This document shows, one piece after another, positions 849 through 5,381 of a stretch of DNA of 5,381 nt. The notes beneath the pieces were generated by a model, which did not search any database, was not told where the DNA came from, and saw only the letters and a list, made by a program, of their open reading frames with translations. Within the stretch, counting starts at the first letter, position 1. The number at the start of each line of letters is the position of its first letter. Position numbers and translations under genes: made by a program. Source of the stretch: a virus (Duplodnaviria; Heunggongvirae; Uroviricota; Caudoviricetes); IMG/VR virus record IMGVR_UViG_2660238346_000018; one strand, given 5' to 3'.

Positions 849-1307
849 CTACTTAATGCACTGAGTACGGATATATTCCTGCGCCCCTTCCAGTTGCTTC
901 TGCATCGTCATCAGCCGCTCTCTGAGGGTGAAATAATCCCGTGTAACGGTGTCTGCCAGTCGGGGGCCGGTTGCATTATCCACGCGGGCGGTGCCGGTGG
1001 CTTCACGCACGGGACCTGGACAGGTGGCGTTGATACGCAGGCGCTTACGACCAGCGGCAACGTCAGCGCGAAAAGTTTCATTTTCAGCTCTCGCATCAGC
1101 TAATTCCCTCGAGTATTTTGCATCGAGCGCAGCAACATCGCGCTGGCGCACCTGCATATCAGTAATGGTTGCGTTCGCCAGCTTCAGTTCACTGGCTTTG
1201 TTATCGCGCTGCGCTTTGTAGGTAATCGCGTTATCACGGTAATGGTCTGTTGCCATCCACAGCGCTCCACAGGCCACCAGCAGAATAACGATAAACGCGG
1301 AAAGCAT
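849..1307 (-). CDS. Rz: Rz i-spanin (inner-membrane spanin subunit)
   Basis: Translation closely matches lambda Rz as remembered: [50 protein letters not shown], with an N-terminal TM segment. Start taken as ATG at 1307; the ORF track extends to an in-frame GTG at 1322. Confidence 0.85.
911..1096 (-). CDS. Rz1: Rz1 o-spanin (outer-membrane lipoprotein) nested in the +1 frame of Rz
   Basis: [20 protein letters not shown]...[32 protein letters not shown] is near-collinear with lambda Rz1 (lipobox, proline-rich segment, [26 protein letters not shown]). It lies wholly inside Rz. GAGGGA sits about 8 nt upstream of the ATG. Confidence 0.8.
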
Positions 1308-1318
1308 TCGGTTTATGT

Positions 1319-1450
1319 TCACCCCAGCAGCCCCGACGAAGACAACATCATCCAGGCCATGGAAAGAAAAAGAGCAACCAGCATTAGTGAAAATGAAATG
1401 CCGACAATTACACAGAGGATCTTCGCCAGCGTTATGAGTTTGTCTGACAT
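1319..1450 (-). CDS. Small hydrophobic ORF (43 aa, predicted single TM) immediately upstream of Rz
   Basis: ATG at 1450 is preceded by a strong SD AGGGAGGA with 7-nt spacing. Product [43 protein letters not shown] is almost entirely hydrophobic. Its TGA stop (1321-1319) overlaps the alternative GTG start of Rz. No homolog recognised. Confidence 0.4.
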
Positions 1451-1803: not shown

Positions 1804-2337
1804 TTATCTGTCAATTCCCCAGCACGCCAGCGCACTCTCCTGGTCACGACGGGATACCTGACCGTAACAGTTATTTGAGCGAATACGGCAGTCTCTGCCA
1901 CCGTCCTTAATCCACCAGCGAATCGCCTCGCATGCTCCCCTGCGATCACCAGCATTAATTCGTCTGTAAAACGTCGACGGGAAACACTTACCGGGACCAA
2001 TGTTGTACGGACAGAATGACGCGATCCCCGCTTTCTGGGGTTCGGTCAGCGGCACTCTGATGTTTTTCTCCACCCACGCCAGCGCTTTATCACGCTCAAT
2101 GGCGTTAACCTGGTCGCATTTTTCCTTCGACAACTTCATGCCCGGAACGACAGGTTTGCCATCCACCATGATGGCACCACGGCAGATGGTCCAGATACCT
2201 GCACCATCACGGTATGCCGTTGTGTGGTTACCCTCTTTTTCGTCCAGAAACTGGTCAAGTATCTGAGGAGCAGACGCGCCTGCAGCAATCAGCGCCAGAA
2301 CAGCAGCTGACAGGCCGTATTTGATTTTTGCGTTCAT
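1804..2337 (-). CDS. R: SAR endolysin (T4-lysozyme-like muramidase, glycoside hydrolase family 24)
   Basis: 177 aa. N-terminal Gly/Ala-rich weakly hydrophobic segment YGLSAAVLALIAAGASAPQIL is typical of a signal-anchor-release domain. E..D..T catalytic-triad spacing (EKEGNHTTAYRDGAGIWT) and overall layout resemble phage 21 R. No canonical SD upstream of the ATG (AT-rich ATAAATATCC). Confidence 0.88.
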   Translation of the reverse strand: MNAKIKYGLSAAVLALIAAGASAPQILDQFLDEKEGNHTTAYRDGAGIWTICRGAIMVDGKPVVPGMKLSKEKCDQVNAIERDKALAWVEKNIRVPLTEPQKAGIASFCPYNIGPGKCFPSTFYRRINAGDRRGACEAIRWWIKDGGRDCRIRSNNCYGQVSRRDQESALACWGIDR

Positions 2338-2394
2338 GGATATTTATCAGGATTTATCGGTTCCGAATCCCTGGATATGTTAAGCCTTCACCCC

Positions 2395-2413
2395 GCCAGT
2401 GGTGGGCACTGGC
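2395..2413. repeat. Inverted repeat GCCAGTG-N5-CACTGGC in the divergent intergenic region
   Basis: Read directly: 7-bp arms at 2395-2401 and 2407-2413, located 36-54 nt upstream of the plus-strand 86-aa gene and about 60 nt upstream of the endolysin start on the other strand. Candidate operator or RNA stem. Confidence 0.3.
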
Positions 2414-2448
2414 CAGGGTATGTCAATCTGATAAACACAGAGGTGACT

Positions 2449-2709
2449 ATGGATTATCCAAATCTACCAAAACAAACTTTTGCTGATTTAATCGCACTCA
2501 GGCAAGCAGTCGTAGCTCTAATCAACGTGTTGCCGGATGAGGAAAAGGAATTAGTTAAAGCAATTCTTAACAGAACTGCCGCCGATTTTTCATCATTCCC
2601 ACTGACAGATGACCTTGCGGACCTTCCTGAATTAATTGCAGCGTCCGCCATTAAGCTTACTGAAGAGATTTACTCTCCTCAAAAGCCTTCACAAAATTCC
2701 TGCGAGTAA
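2449..2709 (+). CDS. Hypothetical 86-aa acidic protein, the only plus-strand gene supported in the window
   Basis: ATG at 2449 preceded by GAGGTGA with about 5-nt spacing; TAA stop at 2707-2709 followed 19 nt later by a strong intrinsic terminator. Product MDYPNLPKQTFADLIALRQAVVALINVLPDEEKELVKAILNRTAADFSSFPLTDDLADLPELIAASAIKLTEEIYSPQKPSQNSCE. AT-rich (about 40% GC) relative to flanking lysis genes. No family recognised. Confidence 0.5.
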   Translation: MDYPNLPKQTFADLIALRQAVVALINVLPDEEKELVKAILNRTAADFSSFPLTDDLADLPELIAASAIKLTEEIYSPQKPSQNSCE

Positions 2710-3166
2710 CTTCAATGCAATAATCGTAAAACGCCGCGAACTGCTCATCGCGGCGTTTTTTTGCATCTTCAGAAGGCATCAGCGTCGACAGTTTTTTATT
2801 CAGTTCAACGACGCAATTCTCCAGTTTTTCAATGCGTGATTCGATATCATCTTTTTCTGACAGTATCGTGTTATATGCATTGTTAATTTGTATGGTATAC
2901 CGATCTTCGGAACAAAGGCACTTTTCCTGTGACTGTTCATCCCCTTCACATAACCCGGCAGCAATATCCATGAAAAACTGCTTCGCCTTCTTTTTCGCCT
3001 CAGCTTCGTAAAATTCCAGCGTGGCACCTTCAACACGATCAAGATCAATCACCACATTTGGCAACAACAGTGACGTATACCCACCCGTTTCCAGCGCTAC
3101 AGTAACAGTAATCTTATCCGGGTAATTATTTATCCCTTTAACAACCAGTTCGTATTGTTTATTCAT
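2657..3166 (-). CDS. Hypothetical 169-aa protein inserted between pinholin and endolysin
   Basis: ATG at 3166 lies 4 nt after the pinholin stop, with GGAG about 9 nt upstream. Product MNKQYELVVKGINNYPDKITVTVALETGGYTSLLLPNVVIDLDRVEG... has no signal peptide or TM; the C-terminal half is charged with a coiled-coil-like segment (DDIESRIEKLENCVVELNKKL) and a cysteine cluster CEGDEQSQEKCLC. AT-rich. The CDS reads through the 2728-2762 hairpin (encoding KKRRDEQFAAF) and overlaps the 3' end of the plus-strand gene by 53 nt. Confidence 0.6.
   Translation of the reverse strand: MNKQYELVVKGINNYPDKITVTVALETGGYTSLLLPNVVIDLDRVEGATLEFYEAEAKKKAKQFFMDIAAGLCEGDEQSQEKCLCSEDRYTIQINNAYNTILSEKDDIESRIEKLENCVVELNKKLSTLMPSEDAKKRRDEQFAAFYDYCIEVTRRNFVKAFEESKSLQ
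2728..2762 (+). terminator. Rho-independent terminator for the 86-aa gene, embedded in the convergent 169-aa CDS
   Basis: 9-bp GC-rich stem ACGCCGCGA (2731-2739) / TCGCGGCGT (2748-2756), 8-nt loop, extendable by three A-T pairs, followed by a run of seven T. On the minus strand the same hairpin is followed by TTTTACGATTATT. Confidence 0.7.
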
Positions 3167-3170
3167 CGCC

Positions 3171-3386
3171 TTACTCTCCCCGCGCTGCCTTACGACGGTC
3201 CTCTCTGATTTTGAAATACAGGTTAGTCAGATATGTCAGCAGCCCAAACAGCAGACTCCCCAGCACGCCTATTGCCGCCCACTGAGACGGGGAAACCCTG
3301 TCCAGCAACTGCAGGAACCAGTAGCCCGTTCCCACCGCTGACGTGGTGTATGACACACCTGTTGTGATTTTTTCCATCTGGTACAT
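3171..3386 (-). CDS. S: Class II pinholin (phage 21 S-type) with dual start motif
   Basis: 71 aa [71 protein letters not shown], near-identical in layout to phage 21 S as remembered. Two TM domains, the first Gly/Ala-rich. Met1 and Met4 give the antiholin/holin dual start. GGGAGA SD upstream. Confidence 0.9.
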
Positions 3387-3461
3387 ACCCCGTCTCCCGT
3401 ACTCGGAAGCTCACAACAACAAAAGGGCCACCAGCTCTTTACTGATGACCCTGACTCACCG

Positions 3462-3752
3462 TTACAGCATTGTGCCCGATTCTGGCTGTGTGTCTGTCAT
3501 ATCCGTCACCGGTGGCTCCGGCTGAATATCACCATTTTCCGTGGTGACATCTTCCGCCTGTGGTTCCGGAAGCAGTTCCGGGGATGGTTCCGGCTGTGCA
3601 CCAAGCAATTCATCCAGAATTGAATCCACTTCTGCATCAAGACGCGCCTCAAGGTTCTGCCGAAGTTGCTGTTTCAGTGCGCTCCGGACTTCTTCAGAGC
3701 GCAGGACTTCCTTCACTGCCTCAGCAGTGACCAGCGATTTTATTTCTGACAT
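3462..3752 (-). CDS. Hypothetical acidic 96-aa protein upstream of the holin
   Basis: ATG at 3752 with a weak SD-like GAGAA upstream. Product MSEIKSLVTAEAVKEVLRSEEVRSALKQQLRQNLEARLDAEVDSILDELLG... has a helical N-terminal half and a Pro/Glu-rich low-complexity tail. The ORF track extends it upstream, but that extension (MCCIFFRVGTGQC...) is not protein-like. I faintly recall DUF-type small proteins at this position in Stx-phage annotations but cannot confirm. Confidence 0.5.
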   Translation of the reverse strand: MSEIKSLVTAEAVKEVLRSEEVRSALKQQLRQNLEARLDAEVDSILDELLGAQPEPSPELLPEPQAEDVTTENGDIQPEPPVTDMTDTQPESGTML

Positions 3753-3777: not shown

Positions 3778-3972
3778 TTAAGAAGGTTGTTCCGGAATGA
3801 GTGGGGCTTCTGTTTTTGCTCCGGCTGACTGACTGGCGCTGATTTTCTCTGCGGCCCTTTTATCAATCTGCCTGCGCCAGAAATCGCGCACTGCCCTGTA
3901 CCCACCCGAAAGAAGATACAGCACACAGACCGCCGTACAGAAGTACAGCATCACCTGATGAATAAATGTCAT
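3778..3972 (-). CDS. Hypothetical 64-aa protein with an N-terminal TM helix
   Basis: ATG at 3972. Product MTFIHQVMLYFCTAVCVLYLLSGGYRAVRDFWRRQIDKRAAEKISASQSAGAKTEAPLIPEQPS: one hydrophobic helix then a basic, charged tail. Stops 25 nt before the acidic-protein start. RBS weak (AAGAAA). Confidence 0.4.
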   Translation of the reverse strand: MTFIHQVMLYFCTAVCVLYLLSGGYRAVRDFWRRQIDKRAAEKISASQSAGAKTEAPLIPEQPS

Positions 3973-4111: not shown

Positions 4112-5381
4112 TTATGATGATGCCCGGCTTTCGTTAACTTTGACTGTGACCGTATCAAGCAGTACAGGATACGTCGCTTTTGCCCCCGTGATATCTGTCA
4201 GCGTCAGCGTATCTGCTGTAAAGCCATCATTTGTCCACATCACAAGGTCAAACGCCGTCTGCTCTGTACCATCAATCACCGGAACGACTCTTTCGCTGTT
4301 ATTTCCCGCAAAGCGGAAAACAACCGTATGCCAGTTATGGTCAAACGCACCAAATGTACCAAGTTGTGCATTCGACGTGCCCTTGTGGTGCATAAGATTC
4401 AGATTTGATGCATCCGTCTGAAGGAAGAATGATGCCAGCATACTGTTTGCTGCCGCGCCTGACGCCCACTGCGACACCGGCCAGTAGAGACCAAAGACAA
4501 ACTGTCCGTTCACCAGTTCGCTTCCATCCGGAATTTTGAACCGTACGGCAATTTCACCCCCCTTGCTGAGAAGATTTTTTGCCTCCTCCACTGCAACAGT
4601 ACGGAACATTTTCCAGGACGTCAGTTTACCGGGCTGTTTTTCCAGTCGCAGCGCTTTCCGTCCACCGTCATCAGTCACAGTGCCTTTGCCACCGGCAGCC
4701 CCCCACTGCTGCTCTGTCCATACACCATTTCCACTGTTCGCATCATATTCAGCCACCGTCCTGGTACTGCTCACGGCCTCATCATGACCAGTACCAGCAA
4801 CACCGCCATCCTGCGGTTTCTCAACACCCGGTACCCCCGGACTGACATCATCACCGGGAGTTGTACCACCCAACTGCGGTGCGCTCTGCCCGGTAAGGAA
4901 CGATAATGTCCGCCCGGCGTACTGCAAAATGGCACCTGCCAGGCGGTCTGAAACAATGCCTCTTCGCGCCCATGAACTGAAGTGCGTTTTACGATCGGCT
5001 GACGTCCAGTTACTGGCAGTGCGTGACGCAGCACCATAGTATCCCGCCGGGATAATGTCCGGATCTTCTGACGGCTCGTTTGTCGGCACATTCACACCAT
5101 GCTCATCCGTCATCAACGGCACAAAGTGAATATTCTGCGCAGCTTTGCCTTTATACCCACCGTAAACCGCCTCATACGGCGCTGCATACCTTTCCTTCCA
5201 GTAGTACGTGGTATCACCGCAAATCCACGGGACGCTGGCCGTTGTCCCGCCAGTACACTGCTCTGCCACATCTGCCAGTTCCGTACGGAACTGATTTACC
5301 ATGGCAAGGAAAAGCGCATTGTGTTCTGCATGTCTCCCCGAACTGACATCTTTTTCTCCCTGCATCCAAATCACTGATAAC
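4112..5381 (-). CDS. nanS-p: NanS-family sialate 9-O-acetylesterase, prophage type, N-terminus beyond the window
   Basis: IWMQGEKD, VPWICGDTTYYWKERY..YEAVYGGY, EPSEDPD, GYYGAASRTASNWTSADRKTHFSSWARRGIVSDRLAGAILQY are collinear with remembered E. coli NanS/YjhS blocks (CWMQGEFD, PWFCGDTTWYWKENF, DEDPD, GYYGSAYRSPENWTTALRSSHFSTAARRGIISDRFVEAILQF). An extra C-terminal domain of about 230 aa follows. The reading frame is open to the window edge; the ORF-track start at 5374 is a GTG artefact. Confidence 0.85.
   Translation of the reverse strand, partial: LSVIWMQGEKDVSSGRHAEHNALFLAMVNQFRTELADVAEQCTGGTTASVPWICGDTTYYWKERYAAPYEAVYGGYKGKAAQNIHFVPLMTDEHGVNVPTNEPSEDPDIIPAGYYGAASRTASNWTSADRKTHFSSWARRGIVSDRLAGAILQYAGRTLSFLTGQSAPQLGGTTPGDDVSPGVPGVEKPQDGGVAGTGHDEAVSSTRTVAEYDANSGNGVWTEQQWGAAGGKGTVTDDGGRKALRLEKQPGKLTSWKMFRTVAVEEAKNLLSKGGEIAVRFKIPDGSELVNGQFVFGLYWPVSQWASGAAANSMLASFFLQTDASNLNLMHHKGTSNAQLGTFGAFDHNWHTVVFRFAGNNSERVVPVIDGTEQTAFDLVMWTNDGFTADTLTLTDITGAKATYPVLLDTVTVKVNESRASS

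Follow-up and report, generated by a model that had tools for sequence, protein, structure and literature searches.

Why should a terminator-like hairpin stand inside a reading frame of a phage late operon, at the very place where that frame overlaps a convergent one on the other strand, and how does late transcription get past it to reach the endolysin? The window analysed here (the whole stretch of 5,381 nucleotides, IMG/VR record IMGVR_UViG_2660238346_000018) is the late and lysis region of a lambda-like (lambdoid) phage of Escherichia coli. The ORF list and Pfam matches place the holin, the DUF1327 gene, the lysozyme and Rz/Rz1 together on the minus strand, and a slot for exchangeable plus-strand cassettes lies between the endolysin and the DUF1327 (YdfR-family) gene. 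We compared the window with about 300 related loci. The features on which the argument turns are as follows.

1804..2337, minus strand: endolysin R, 177 aa (Pfam Phage_lysozyme PF00959, E 3e-24; 'lysozyme' in related records)
2338..2413, plus strand: 76-bp upstream block, candidate promoter and 5′ UTR, shared by plus-strand cassettes of the slot
2449..2709 (open from 2377), plus strand: 86-aa orphan ORF, phrog_2572, the cargo of the cassette, with GAGG at 2440-2443
2657..2709, both strands: 53-bp overlap of the convergent ORFs, from the ORF list
2657..3166, minus strand: YdfR-family ORF, 169 aa (Pfam PF07041; phrog_2091)
2672..2688, strand not applicable: mosaic junction, with homology to the interior of YdfR-family genes on its right and cassette DNA on its left
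2688..2807, minus strand: 120-bp conserved module centred on the hairpin, from comparison with the 213-aa L005 type
2728..2762, plus strand: hairpin and T7 run with intrinsic-terminator anatomy for plus-strand transcription, from inverted-repeat search and folding
3171..3386, minus strand: class II (P21-type) holin S (Pfam PF04971, E 9e-33), upstream of the slot in the late operon

The earlier note on this DNA had reported that the convergent ORFs overlap by 53 bp and that a terminator-shaped hairpin lies within the frame of the 169-aa protein, and both observations hold. The overlap, 2657-2709, comprises the stop codon and 16.7 codons of the minus-strand ORF. The hairpin is built from the inverted repeat AAAACGCCGCGA / TCGCGGCGTTTT (2728-2739 and 2748-2759; 12 nt, 100% complementary, 8-nt loop), and the 8-bp core of its stem has seven G-C pairs and one A-T pair. 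The TTT that follows the repeat completes a T7 run at 2756-2762 (T8 in the 2H10-type allele), four T's of which are able to pair with the A-tract. The stem starts 18 nt past the plus-strand stop codon TAA (2707-2709), and the whole hairpin falls within codons K136-F146 (KKRRDEQFAAF) of the minus-strand ORF. For rightward (plus-strand) transcription the full anatomy of an intrinsic terminator is present: a G+C-rich stem-loop, a U run and a position just past a co-oriented stop codon. The plus-strand fold (2722-2770) reaches −19.4 kcal/mol (z = −4.1; 0/200 shuffles as good) and the minus-strand fold (2715-2770) −23.1 kcal/mol (z = −4.4); on the minus strand the stem is followed by UUUUACGAUUAUU, a U-tract weaker than the U7 of the plus strand. 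By an arithmetic estimate, about 0.003 perfect 12-bp inverted repeats with a short loop are expected by chance in 5.4 kb.

A simple consensus terminator scan did not list the hairpin at 2728-2762, because it puts four A-T pairs into the stem and leaves fewer than five T in the tail window; the omission reflects how the tool works and does not count against the hairpin. A scan of the whole window against Rfam (E ≤ 1) gave no match at the hairpin or the overlap; the sole Rfam match in the window, a sub-threshold rimP-leader, falls at a different hairpin, 1649-1737. We rejected a bidirectional terminator of the convergent pair, given the weaker minus-strand tail and a minus-strand unit that must continue to the endolysin and Rz. 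A programmed −1 frameshift at the A7 run was likewise rejected: the run reads A AAA AAA on the minus strand, but the stem starts at the run (spacer 0) and the −1 frame, read from the sequence, hits UGA after 4 codons.

The hairpin is also coding sequence. It encodes the conserved peptide KKRRDEQFAAF in a predicted helix of the 169-aa protein, and in 117 loci, which were collected by the hairpin pattern itself, it is always in frame as KKRRDEQFAAFYD[YD]C. It had been asked whether homologs might end before the hairpin, the tail then being an artefact of reading through it, and whether they share one C-terminal tail. Every hairpin-bearing homolog reads through, and 89/117 loci carry the tail IEVTRRNFVK[AI]FEE[SG]KSLQ-stop. 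Hairpin and peptide are found, moreover, in longer relatives (213-296 aa) where no plus-strand gene ends nearby, including 213-aa proteins that lack DUF1327, and in 287-385-aa fusions. In the 213-aa and 287-385-aa forms the ORF runs on for 120-240 codons past the hairpin, entering a conserved domain in the 213-, 287- and 385-aa forms. Comparison with L005 delimits the 120-bp module, with the pattern ELNKKLS.L.PSED.KKRRDEQFAAFYD.C....RR.F and variable sequence on both flanks; in some alleles (L197 type; 197/211-aa variants) a further junction falls right at the right edge of the hairpin. The hairpin thus appears to be older than, and independent of, the 86-aa gene and to belong to a conserved coding module. 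Nor is the hairpin a mobile terminator module used elsewhere: all 111 viral-contig matches and the single species-representative genome match lie in the same slot and the same frame.

The overlap itself is no designed feature, to judge by the extent of homology: that of the minus-strand ORF to its longer relatives continues for about 40-55 bp beyond the hairpin and then stops. Compared with L005, blocks starting at 2688 and lying to its right have 11-15/15 identical positions, and those to its left are at about background level; over the 14 tail codons, IEVTRRNFVKAFEE and IKIARRTFANILQE agree at 29/42 nt, and beyond them the match is about random. The junction matches the start of a disordered tail in the AF2 model of the 86-aa protein, which has three helices and pLDDT < 50 at residues 76-86. 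The last 5-10 codons of the minus-strand ORF and the last 7-12 of the plus-strand ORF are run-on across the junction. Each ORF runs over the junction to the first stop codon, and therefore the two overlap; the whole 53 bp would be such run-on. In the phase of the overlap, a third codon position in either frame is a second position in its counterpart, and the variable sites (n=7) favour neither frame.

We consider it probable, if far from certain, that the locus is a mosaic junction in a holin-endolysin accessory slot, at which a moron-type cassette uses a pre-existing coding palindrome as its terminator. The C-terminal domain of a YdfR-family gene would have been replaced by an opposite-strand cassette consisting of the 76-bp block and the 86-aa ORF, though the exchange may also have run the other way. 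From a junction at about 2672-2688, the plus-strand ORF would continue into former YdfR-family DNA, to TAA, and the minus-strand ORF into cassette DNA, also to TAA. The hairpin, as an older YdfR-family coding palindrome, would be the first terminator-shaped structure met by the rightward transcript. It would most likely end the cassette transcript, sparing the YdfR-family gene and the holin from antisense transcription. We infer both this termination and expression of the cassette in the lysogen. The arrangement falls within the usual mosaicism of phages and is neither a novel regulatory device nor a new kind of system.

This explanation takes the minus-strand ORF to be a gene. Its match to PF07041 (DUF1327) scores 120.7 bits against a cut-off of 25 and covers residues 1-80 (2927-3166), and it lies where YdfR-family genes lie, between the class II holin and the lysozyme of a lambdoid lysis cassette. 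The family phrog_2091 spans its full length (E 2e-84), marking the 169/183-aa form as a recognised phage family; the match to phrog_1085 covers positions 1-174 of 296. The AF2 model has the DUF1327 domain, a disordered linker and long helices at 87-129 and 133-167, confident through residue 167 and with the tail inside the second; a Foldseek search of this model (169 aa) against the PDB gave no match with E ≤ 0.001. The usual C-terminal domain, present in the 268-296-aa relatives, is absent, and the ORF appears to be a C-terminally shortened form of the ~296-aa architecture.

The full minus-strand ORF is annotated by phage submitters, whereas PGAP labels it a pseudogene, 'incomplete; missing C-terminus', in four genomes. 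On the RefSeq/PGAP account, it would be a remnant of which the first 82-112 codons are meaningful, and the plus-strand gene with its terminator would be the functional unit. It is true that the C-terminal domain of the long relatives is missing, that the Pfam match is limited to residues 1-80 and that PGAP annotates the plus-strand ORF (as a hypothetical protein). Against this, the frame is kept across both the helical region and the hairpin in nearly every locus, although homologs differ by in-frame indels of 7, 14 and 42 codons. The full-length match to phrog_2091, the occurrence of the 169/183-aa form in E. coli, Shigella and Salmonella, the confident helices and the retention of the ORF by inducible phages also argue against a remnant, and we regard the pseudogene account as quite improbable.

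The plus-strand ORF is harder to judge. It matches PHROG 2572 (E 4e-50), annotated as of unknown function, and has GAGG 6-9 nt upstream of its ATG. Its homologs are all ≥81% identical and come from E. coli, plus one partial Salmonella match; the homolog search found no distant ones. The 'DUF1823' label given to it in PhiR12 records was rejected (15.3 bits against a cut-off of 25), and the protein has no Pfam family. PADLOC and NCBIfam scans of the slot proteins returned nothing meaningful. The ATG is lost in 7/80 loci and one locus has a nonsense codon, together about 10%, and the GenBank record of 2H10 annotates the minus-strand ORF alone. All this would fit an alternative in which only the minus-strand gene is real, the 86-aa ORF being a chance or decaying frame and the hairpin a coding palindrome or the relic of an old terminator, with no plus-strand function now. 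Substitution counts point the same way at first sight, with S:N = 10:20 in the 86-aa ORF against 7.9 S expected, that is, no significant purifying selection in what is a low-power test. But the DUF1327 domain fails the same test (S = 12 against 9.4 expected) in spite of its Pfam support, and six-frame S/N and codon-position counts for the plus-strand ORF, the helical region and the DUF1327 domain gave nothing significant; the test is without power in a recombining, closely related set. Both protein families are confined to prophages of Escherichia, Shigella and Salmonella, which leaves no deep conservation comparison. Four independent indels in the 86-aa ORF, in contrast, are all in frame, which together with the good GAGG counts against that alternative.

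The slot as a whole also tells against a chance frame. Between the endolysin and the YdfR-family gene, related loci carry plus-strand ORFs of 86, 104, 105, 106 or 210 aa, or none, representing at least four unrelated kinds of cassette (86, 210, 104/106 and 105 aa), so that the gene is present, absent or replaced at one position among related phages, as morons are. E. coli HS (NC_009800.1), for instance, has a cassette of the 2H10 type at 1669202-1669557. The 76-bp block stands upstream of the 86-, 210- and 104-aa ORFs, all in the same orientation, and in a variant form upstream of the 106-aa ORF; it is absent in six allele types where a long YdfR-family gene directly abuts R. The block holds TTTATC (2353-2358), a 17-nt spacer and TATGTT (2376-2381), as well as a 7-bp inverted repeat, GCCAGTG/CACTGGC, at 2394-2412. 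Across 7 variants, TTTAT[CA]-17-TATGT[TC] keeps an invariant spacing while the spacers differ at up to 6/17 positions, and the hexamers are kept save for the last base of each in one variant. The hexamers match the consensus weakly (3/6 and 4/6), a consensus promoter scan called no promoter upstream of the 86-aa ORF, and the hexamers overlap the stretch immediately before the endolysin start, from which their conservation could stem instead. The block is a candidate promoter of the plus-strand cassettes, and on the mosaic-junction explanation the likely one.

Where a plus-strand cassette is present the hairpin is mostly intact, and where there is none it has decayed. The hairpin is intact in 78/80 loci retrieved via the 86-aa protein. 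Among loci retrieved without reference to the hairpin, a plus-strand hairpin of ≤ −12 kcal/mol is found in 116/124 with the cassette block and in 1/40 without it; at the level of haplotypes this reduces to 15 against 2 (Mann-Whitney p = 0.05), with few independent lineages. In the main block-less lineage the stem is broken by a synonymous GCG>GCT, and KKRRDEQFAAF is kept even where the stem is broken. One locus, L058, has a perfect hairpin and no cassette, and was itself found by the hairpin pattern. Single stem substitutions keep the pairing on the plus RNA in three haplotypes and on the minus RNA in two. The Stx1-type cassette, clonal at 99-100% identity, was left out as an independent test of hairpin upkeep.

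Protein constraint on its own would keep most of the palindrome, as one would expect if the minus-strand gene alone were real: the peptide persists with a broken stem, and synonymous recodings of it still fold, with a mean of about −9 kcal/mol. The natural hairpin, however, beats 99.3% (plus RNA) and 99.7% (minus RNA) of 5000 synonymous recodings under E. coli codon usage, and 14 to 33 of the 5000 fold as well. With several unrelated plus-strand ORFs behind a common block, this makes a real minus-strand gene facing a meaningless plus strand rather unlikely.

A hairpin stronger than its peptide demands, and retained where plus-strand cassettes are present, could instead be read as part of a regulatory device, for which the earlier note saw scope. 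A plus-strand transcript made in the lysogen and the late minus-strand transcript would then control each other, through pairing of antisense RNA over 2657-2762 or through collision of polymerases at the hairpin, so as to limit leakage of holin and endolysin or to time lysis. The convergent layout and a hairpin of A-tract, stem and T-tract that can fold on both strands would suit such a device, and there are precedents: in E. coli, hairpins that separate convergent genes have been described as sites of termination driven by collision (10.1101/2022.10.23.513370), and in P22 the ant moron influences late read-through and harbours an antisense RNA (PMC2629481). Yet run-on at the junction explains the overlap fully, and the geometry is not conserved: the 104/106-aa plus-strand ORFs end about 500 nt from the hairpin, and an allele with 2 nt inserted (L018 type, 4 loci) has both ORF ends changed. 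Many loci, moreover, have a decayed hairpin and no cassette. We hold a regulatory device to be distinctly unlikely. The same low standing applies to a broader speculation, that the hairpin is dual-use, both encoding a helix of a late protein and serving as common terminator to exchangeable opposite-strand morons that share a promoter block, whose prophage transcripts, antisense to the 3′ part of the YdfR-family gene, might damp leaky lysis-gene expression or tune the timing of lysis.

On the mosaic-junction explanation, there remains the passage of late transcription. The earlier note was right that it must cross the hairpin, because endolysin R lies downstream on the late strand; PhiR12_1/2/5 and 2H10, which are viable phages, carry the arrangement of overlap and hairpin. 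In lambda, Q-modified polymerase reads through terminators, and a Q-modified, terminator-resistant polymerase would carry leftward transcription past this one. About 400 nt of a translated ORF precede the hairpin, and the trailing ribosome would suppress its formation. Trailing ribosomes repress terminators that lie near the end of translated ORFs (Li et al. 2016, PMC4824070); for a terminator 17-18 nt past a stop codon, the efficiency is 12-80%, depending on sequence (PMC4824070). By analogy, Q antitermination and coupled translation should suffice for read-through, which would need nothing unusual.

If the mosaic-junction explanation is true, the locus offers a worked example of how mosaicism creates overlapping convergent ORFs and a terminator inside coding sequence, and of an incoming cassette that takes over a coding palindrome for its terminator. 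It would also help annotation: where RefSeq has a pseudogene, and phage submitters two overlapping genes or one, comparison separates ancestral from run-on codons. The little-noticed accessory slot between holin and endolysin, where at least five distinct orphan genes on the opposite strand follow one common block, would be a reasonable place to seek lysogen-expressed functions.

Several known systems resemble parts of this arrangement. Like the masked intragenic terminators (PMC4824070; lambda Q), the window has a canonical hairpin late in a translated ORF of a Q-dependent operon, and both mechanisms predict read-through; here, unlike there, read-through is a prediction, and the minus-strand U-tract UUUUACGAUUAUU is weaker than the plus-strand U7. 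The bidirectional terminators of convergent E. coli genes (Ju et al. 2019, as described in 10.1101/2022.10.23.513370) are, so far as that description goes, similar in having one hairpin at convergent 3′ ends, with A-tract and T-tract flanks, that folds in both transcripts. The late operon, in contrast, must not stop, and the window hairpin can terminate in one direction only during lytic growth.

YdfR of the E. coli K-12 Qin prophage (103 aa) shares the N-terminal DUF1327 and the position between holin (essQ) and lysozyme (rrrQ). Its first 72 residues bind the catalytic half of RNase E, and the protein co-purifies with RNA (PMC13232886). The window protein has, in addition, a helical region that includes the peptide encoded by the hairpin. 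In E. coli genomes that have the short YdfR, the match to the window covers the DUF1327 part alone, at ~80% identity, and these genomes appear to be without the hairpin and the plus-strand cassette.

The cis-antisense RNAs of lambda OOP/cII and P22 sar/ant are RNAs with demonstrated effects. In the window too, a short transcript would complement the 3′ part of an opposite-strand gene; here, in contrast, the pairing is known as sequence complementarity over 2657-2762 alone.

The closest likeness is to the morons of lambdoid phages, such as lambda bor and lom and those of HK97/HK022. Late operons are known to contain variable slots for such genes, the P22 'ant moron' (PMC2629481) being one example. 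The window slot differs in lying between holin and endolysin and in having as its putative terminator a palindrome in the coding sequence of the neighbouring late gene; expression of its cassettes from the prophage is a conjecture. As with morons, a gene is present, absent or different among relatives at one fixed late-operon position, in an opposite or independent orientation and with a putative promoter and terminator of its own; and the many alternative contents, which share some sequence, point to one old insertion site in rapid flux.

The recognisable genes of the window all lie on the minus strand and make up the late and lysis region of a lambdoid (Stx-phage-like) prophage:

4112-5374, minus strand, cut ORF (RefSeq annotation: SASA-family carbohydrate esterase)
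3778-3972, minus strand, DUF1378
3462-3752, minus strand, DUF826
3171-3386, minus strand, P21-type class II holin
2657-3166, minus strand, DUF1327/YdfR-family ORF of 169 aa
1804-2337, minus strand, lysozyme (endolysin)
between lysozyme and Rz, minus strand, two small ORFs
849-1322, minus strand, Rz, with Rz1 nested within it

Downstream of Rz/Rz1, also on the late strand, a small ORF at 41-271 carries a lipoprotein-type signal (…LLSSLVMGC…). Over 2338-3170 the window matches E. coli strain EC2 and the inducible phages PhiR12_1, PhiR12_2 and PhiR12_5 at 99.6-99.8% identity; compared with phage 2H10 and Qin-like prophages of many E. coli, identity is ~89% and the middle is replaced. The region of the plus-strand gene was found in at least 294 of 5,426 complete E. 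coli genomes, strain HS among them.

The plus-strand gene, an ORF of 86 aa, starts with the ATG at 2449, behind a GAGG at 2440-2443, and stops at 2707-2709. The stop of the minus-strand ORF is at 2657-2659, and the two ORFs overlap over 2657-2709 (53 bp). A hairpin, AAAACGCCGCGA-ACTGCTCA-TCGCGGCGTTTT followed by TTT, occupies 2728-2762, 18 nt past the plus-strand stop and within codons K136-F146 of the minus-strand ORF. Its plus-strand RNA folds at -19.4 kcal/mol, a value equalled by none of 200 shuffles; the U-tract is poorer on the minus strand (UUUUACGAUUAUU). ORF coordinates and inverted repeat thus confirm the earlier note, which had described a 53-bp convergent overlap with a hairpin inside the 169-aa frame, and we agree that this hairpin has the anatomy of a terminator.

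The same note allowed that the tail of the 169-aa protein might be a read-through artefact, with homologs ending upstream of the hairpin. The homologs speak against this: of the 280 retrieved, those 162-211 aa long (in E. coli, Shigella and Salmonella, with overall identities as low as 47%) all read through the hairpin peptide into a common tail, IEVTRRNFVK[AI]FEE[SG]KSLQ*. The hairpin lies in the same minus-strand frame in all 117 loci that contain its pattern (a scan supplied 111 on viral contigs and one in a genome; the window and previously fetched loci make up the rest). Upstream of it, homologs differ by in-frame indels of 7, 14 and 42 codons that leave the ORF open. In the AF2 model of the 169-aa protein, the hairpin peptide and most of the tail fall within the helix 133-167 (pLDDT 67-79). 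At two related loci, L058 and L137, the A8 run abutting the hairpin (window 2756-2763) is one base shorter. The YdfR-family ORF thereby changes frame at the hairpin, and in L058 it is broken into ORFs of 194 and 134 aa; the missing base may reflect either sequencing error or true mutation of the homopolymer.

Beyond the hairpin, the tail varies with the DNA to its left. With the 86-aa-gene cassette it has 27 residues (89 loci), in Stx1 phages it has 121 residues and is antisense to a 210-aa plus-strand ORF, and at other loci the ORF runs on into a conserved ~130-residue domain (EWECNRPSF...YLK.RI), giving proteins of 287-296 aa. A protein of 213-217 aa combines the helical region, the hairpin peptide and the ~130-residue domain, without DUF1327. 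PHROG 1085 (296 positions) spans DUF1327, the helices and the C-terminal domain, and PHROG 2091 (183 positions) is the short form. RefSeq PGAP handles the overlap by labelling the late gene a pseudogene 'missing C-terminus', a call that is correct on the missing domain but disregards the conserved open helical region. At one locus, L015, the gene for a 213-aa protein with the hairpin peptide and the C-terminal domain is followed by one for a free-standing 75-aa DUF1327 protein (E = 2e-8; 427-654 of the sub-region, minus strand, in numbering that begins 10 nt before the shared 5' block); the halves of the long architecture therefore also exist apart, in reversed order. At another, L066, the Stx1-type tail continues in frame into the C-terminal domain (385 aa).

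Homology to the long relatives extends over the first 14 codons of the window's tail (IEVTRRNFVKAFEE), which correspond to internal codons there (IKIARRTFANILQE, RKVMSRNLAECF..). Compared with L005, a locus of the 213-aa type, 29 of their 42 nt are identical and past them identity is about random, while block-wise alignment gives clear homology to YdfR-family DNA from 2688 rightwards; these two limits place the cassette junction at ~2672-2688. To the right of the junction, the plus-strand ORF crosses 7-12 codons of former YdfR-family DNA before its TAA, where L005 has CAA; to the left, the minus-strand ORF crosses 5-10 codons of cassette DNA before its own TAA. For the 86-aa protein, AF2 predicts three helices, with pLDDT below 50 at residues 76-86, exactly the run-on part. 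In a type represented by four loci (L018, L033, L056 and L100), a natural 2-nt insertion (GAGAG) at the equivalent of window 2704-2709 deletes the plus-strand stop; the plus-strand ORF then crosses the hairpin and reaches 137 aa, and the minus-strand ORF is cut, ending ...IEVTLAGIL*. Since this one insertion alters both termini, neither is tightly constrained. We conclude that the 53-bp overlap is a leftover of the junction between two convergent ORFs, with no conserved design, and that the whole is a mosaic junction, at which a shortened late gene meets one of several opposite-strand cassettes that can replace one another.

The slot between the endolysin start and the YdfR-family gene holds five different plus-strand ORFs (86, 104, 105, 106 or 210 aa) or none. 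Among loci with a locatable endolysin start, a 76-bp block next to that start (2338-2413) precedes at least four unrelated cassettes (the 86-, 210-, 104- and 106-aa types) and is missing where the long gene directly abuts the endolysin. Seven variants of the block all have TTTAT[CA] and TATGT[TC] 17 nt apart (TTTATC-17-TATGTT in the window), with spacers differing at up to 6 of 17 positions. Just downstream of these promoter-like hexamers, a 7-bp inverted repeat (GCCAGTG-GTGGG-CACTGGC, 2394-2412), of which 5-6 bp are retained in the diverged variants of L187 and L207, may act as an operator or form a 5' stem-loop. The block is a candidate signature of a shared promoter and 5' UTR, although the hexamers are weak and it also borders the endolysin start, and thereby a candidate common promoter for a moron family of the holin-endolysin slot. 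In the Stx1a phage Stx1_14040 (L004), the 210-aa plus-strand ORF (141-773, counted from a point 10 nt before the shared 5' block) has no family match and is fully antisense to the last ~85 codons of a 263-aa minus-strand ORF (522-1313), so one of the two is likely real, not both; GenBank annotates only the latter. The 210-aa ORF has its own weak hairpin with a T7 run, ~50 nt upstream of the main one.

The 86-aa ORF belongs to PHROG 2572, a function-unknown family. It has no Pfam family (the label 'DUF1823' is sub-threshold), and PADLOC and NCBIfam searches gave no match. None of its homologs falls below 81% identity, and almost all come from E. coli. Four independent indels are all in frame; ACG replaces ATG in 7 of 80 loci, and one has a nonsense codon. 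Synonymous changes were not in excess (10 versus 7.9 expected), in a powerless test that the DUF1327 domain fails too; the varied contents of the slot are the more informative evidence on the plus-strand side.

The hairpin lies within a module (2688-2807, as compared with the 213-aa type) flanked by variable DNA on both sides, and some alleles have an additional junction directly at its right edge. The peptide is kept even where the stem is broken. Among long-protein loci, fetched without reference to the hairpin, a synonymous GCG>GCT change in the most frequent haplotype (35 loci) disrupts the stem (plus-strand RNA, -7.6 kcal/mol), another haplotype (12 loci) retains plus-strand pairing via a G-U pair, the stem is perfect in 7, and the segment is absent in 18. 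Loci fetched via the 86-aa protein have an intact stem in 78 of 80 cases. When the peptide was held fixed and recoded 5,000 times with E. coli codon usage, 14 minus-strand and 33 plus-strand RNAs folded as well as the real sequence; the average was still -9 to -10 kcal/mol, since codons for K are complementary to those for F, and codons for R to those for A. The sequence therefore holds nucleotide-level information beyond the protein, and the palindrome is partly peptide-derived. In loci not selected for the hairpin, a plus-strand hairpin of -12 kcal/mol or stronger occurs in 116 of 124 with the block and 1 of 40 without it, an association that comes from few lineages (15 versus 2 exclusive haplotypes, p = 0.05). 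The coding palindrome probably serves as the cassette terminator.

A rightward transcript from the block would cross the 86-aa ORF and reach the hairpin 18 nt past the stop. Terminators at that distance have efficiencies of 0.12 to 0.8, depending on sequence (PMC4824070), and given this range plus-strand termination may depend in part on translation of the ORF. Termination here would keep antisense transcription out of the YdfR-family gene and the holin. We concur with the earlier note that late transcription must cross the hairpin to reach endolysin, Rz and Rz1; viable phages carry the arrangement. Q modification of the lambda type makes polymerase terminator-resistant, and where a terminator stands late in an ORF under translation, the coupled ribosome represses it. 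For leftward read-through these two established mechanisms, the latter described in PMC4824070, would suffice, and the minus-strand U-tract is also the poorer one. The mutual antisense or terminator-based regulation for which the note saw scope is speculative and unnecessary for explaining the anatomy.

A second hairpin of the same type (A-tract, 13-bp stem, T-tract), at 1681-1713 between the endolysin and the small ORFs preceding Rz, looks like a terminator on both strands; terminator-shaped hairpins are therefore not exceptional in this late operon. The sole Rfam match in the window, to the rimP leader (E = 0.23), falls on it and reflects generic terminator likeness. Immediately upstream of the holin gene, at 3424-3452 on the minus strand, is a terminator-like hairpin of 12 pairs followed by TTTGTTGTTG.

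The late gene belongs to the YdfR/DUF1327 family, like K-12 YdfR, whose first 72 residues bind the catalytic half of RNase E and which co-purifies with RNA (PMC13232886). By analogy, RNase E offers a possible clue to what the late gene does (DUF1327 domain, 2927-3166, minus strand). The hairpin resembles those shared between convergent E. coli genes (10.1101/2022.10.23.513370); we rejected a bidirectional terminator, as one unit, the late operon, must continue past it. The arrangement fits the moron concept, and the slot resembles the single, rapidly changing 'ant moron' slot of P22-like late operons, which in P22 contains an antisense RNA and influences late read-through (PMC2629481).
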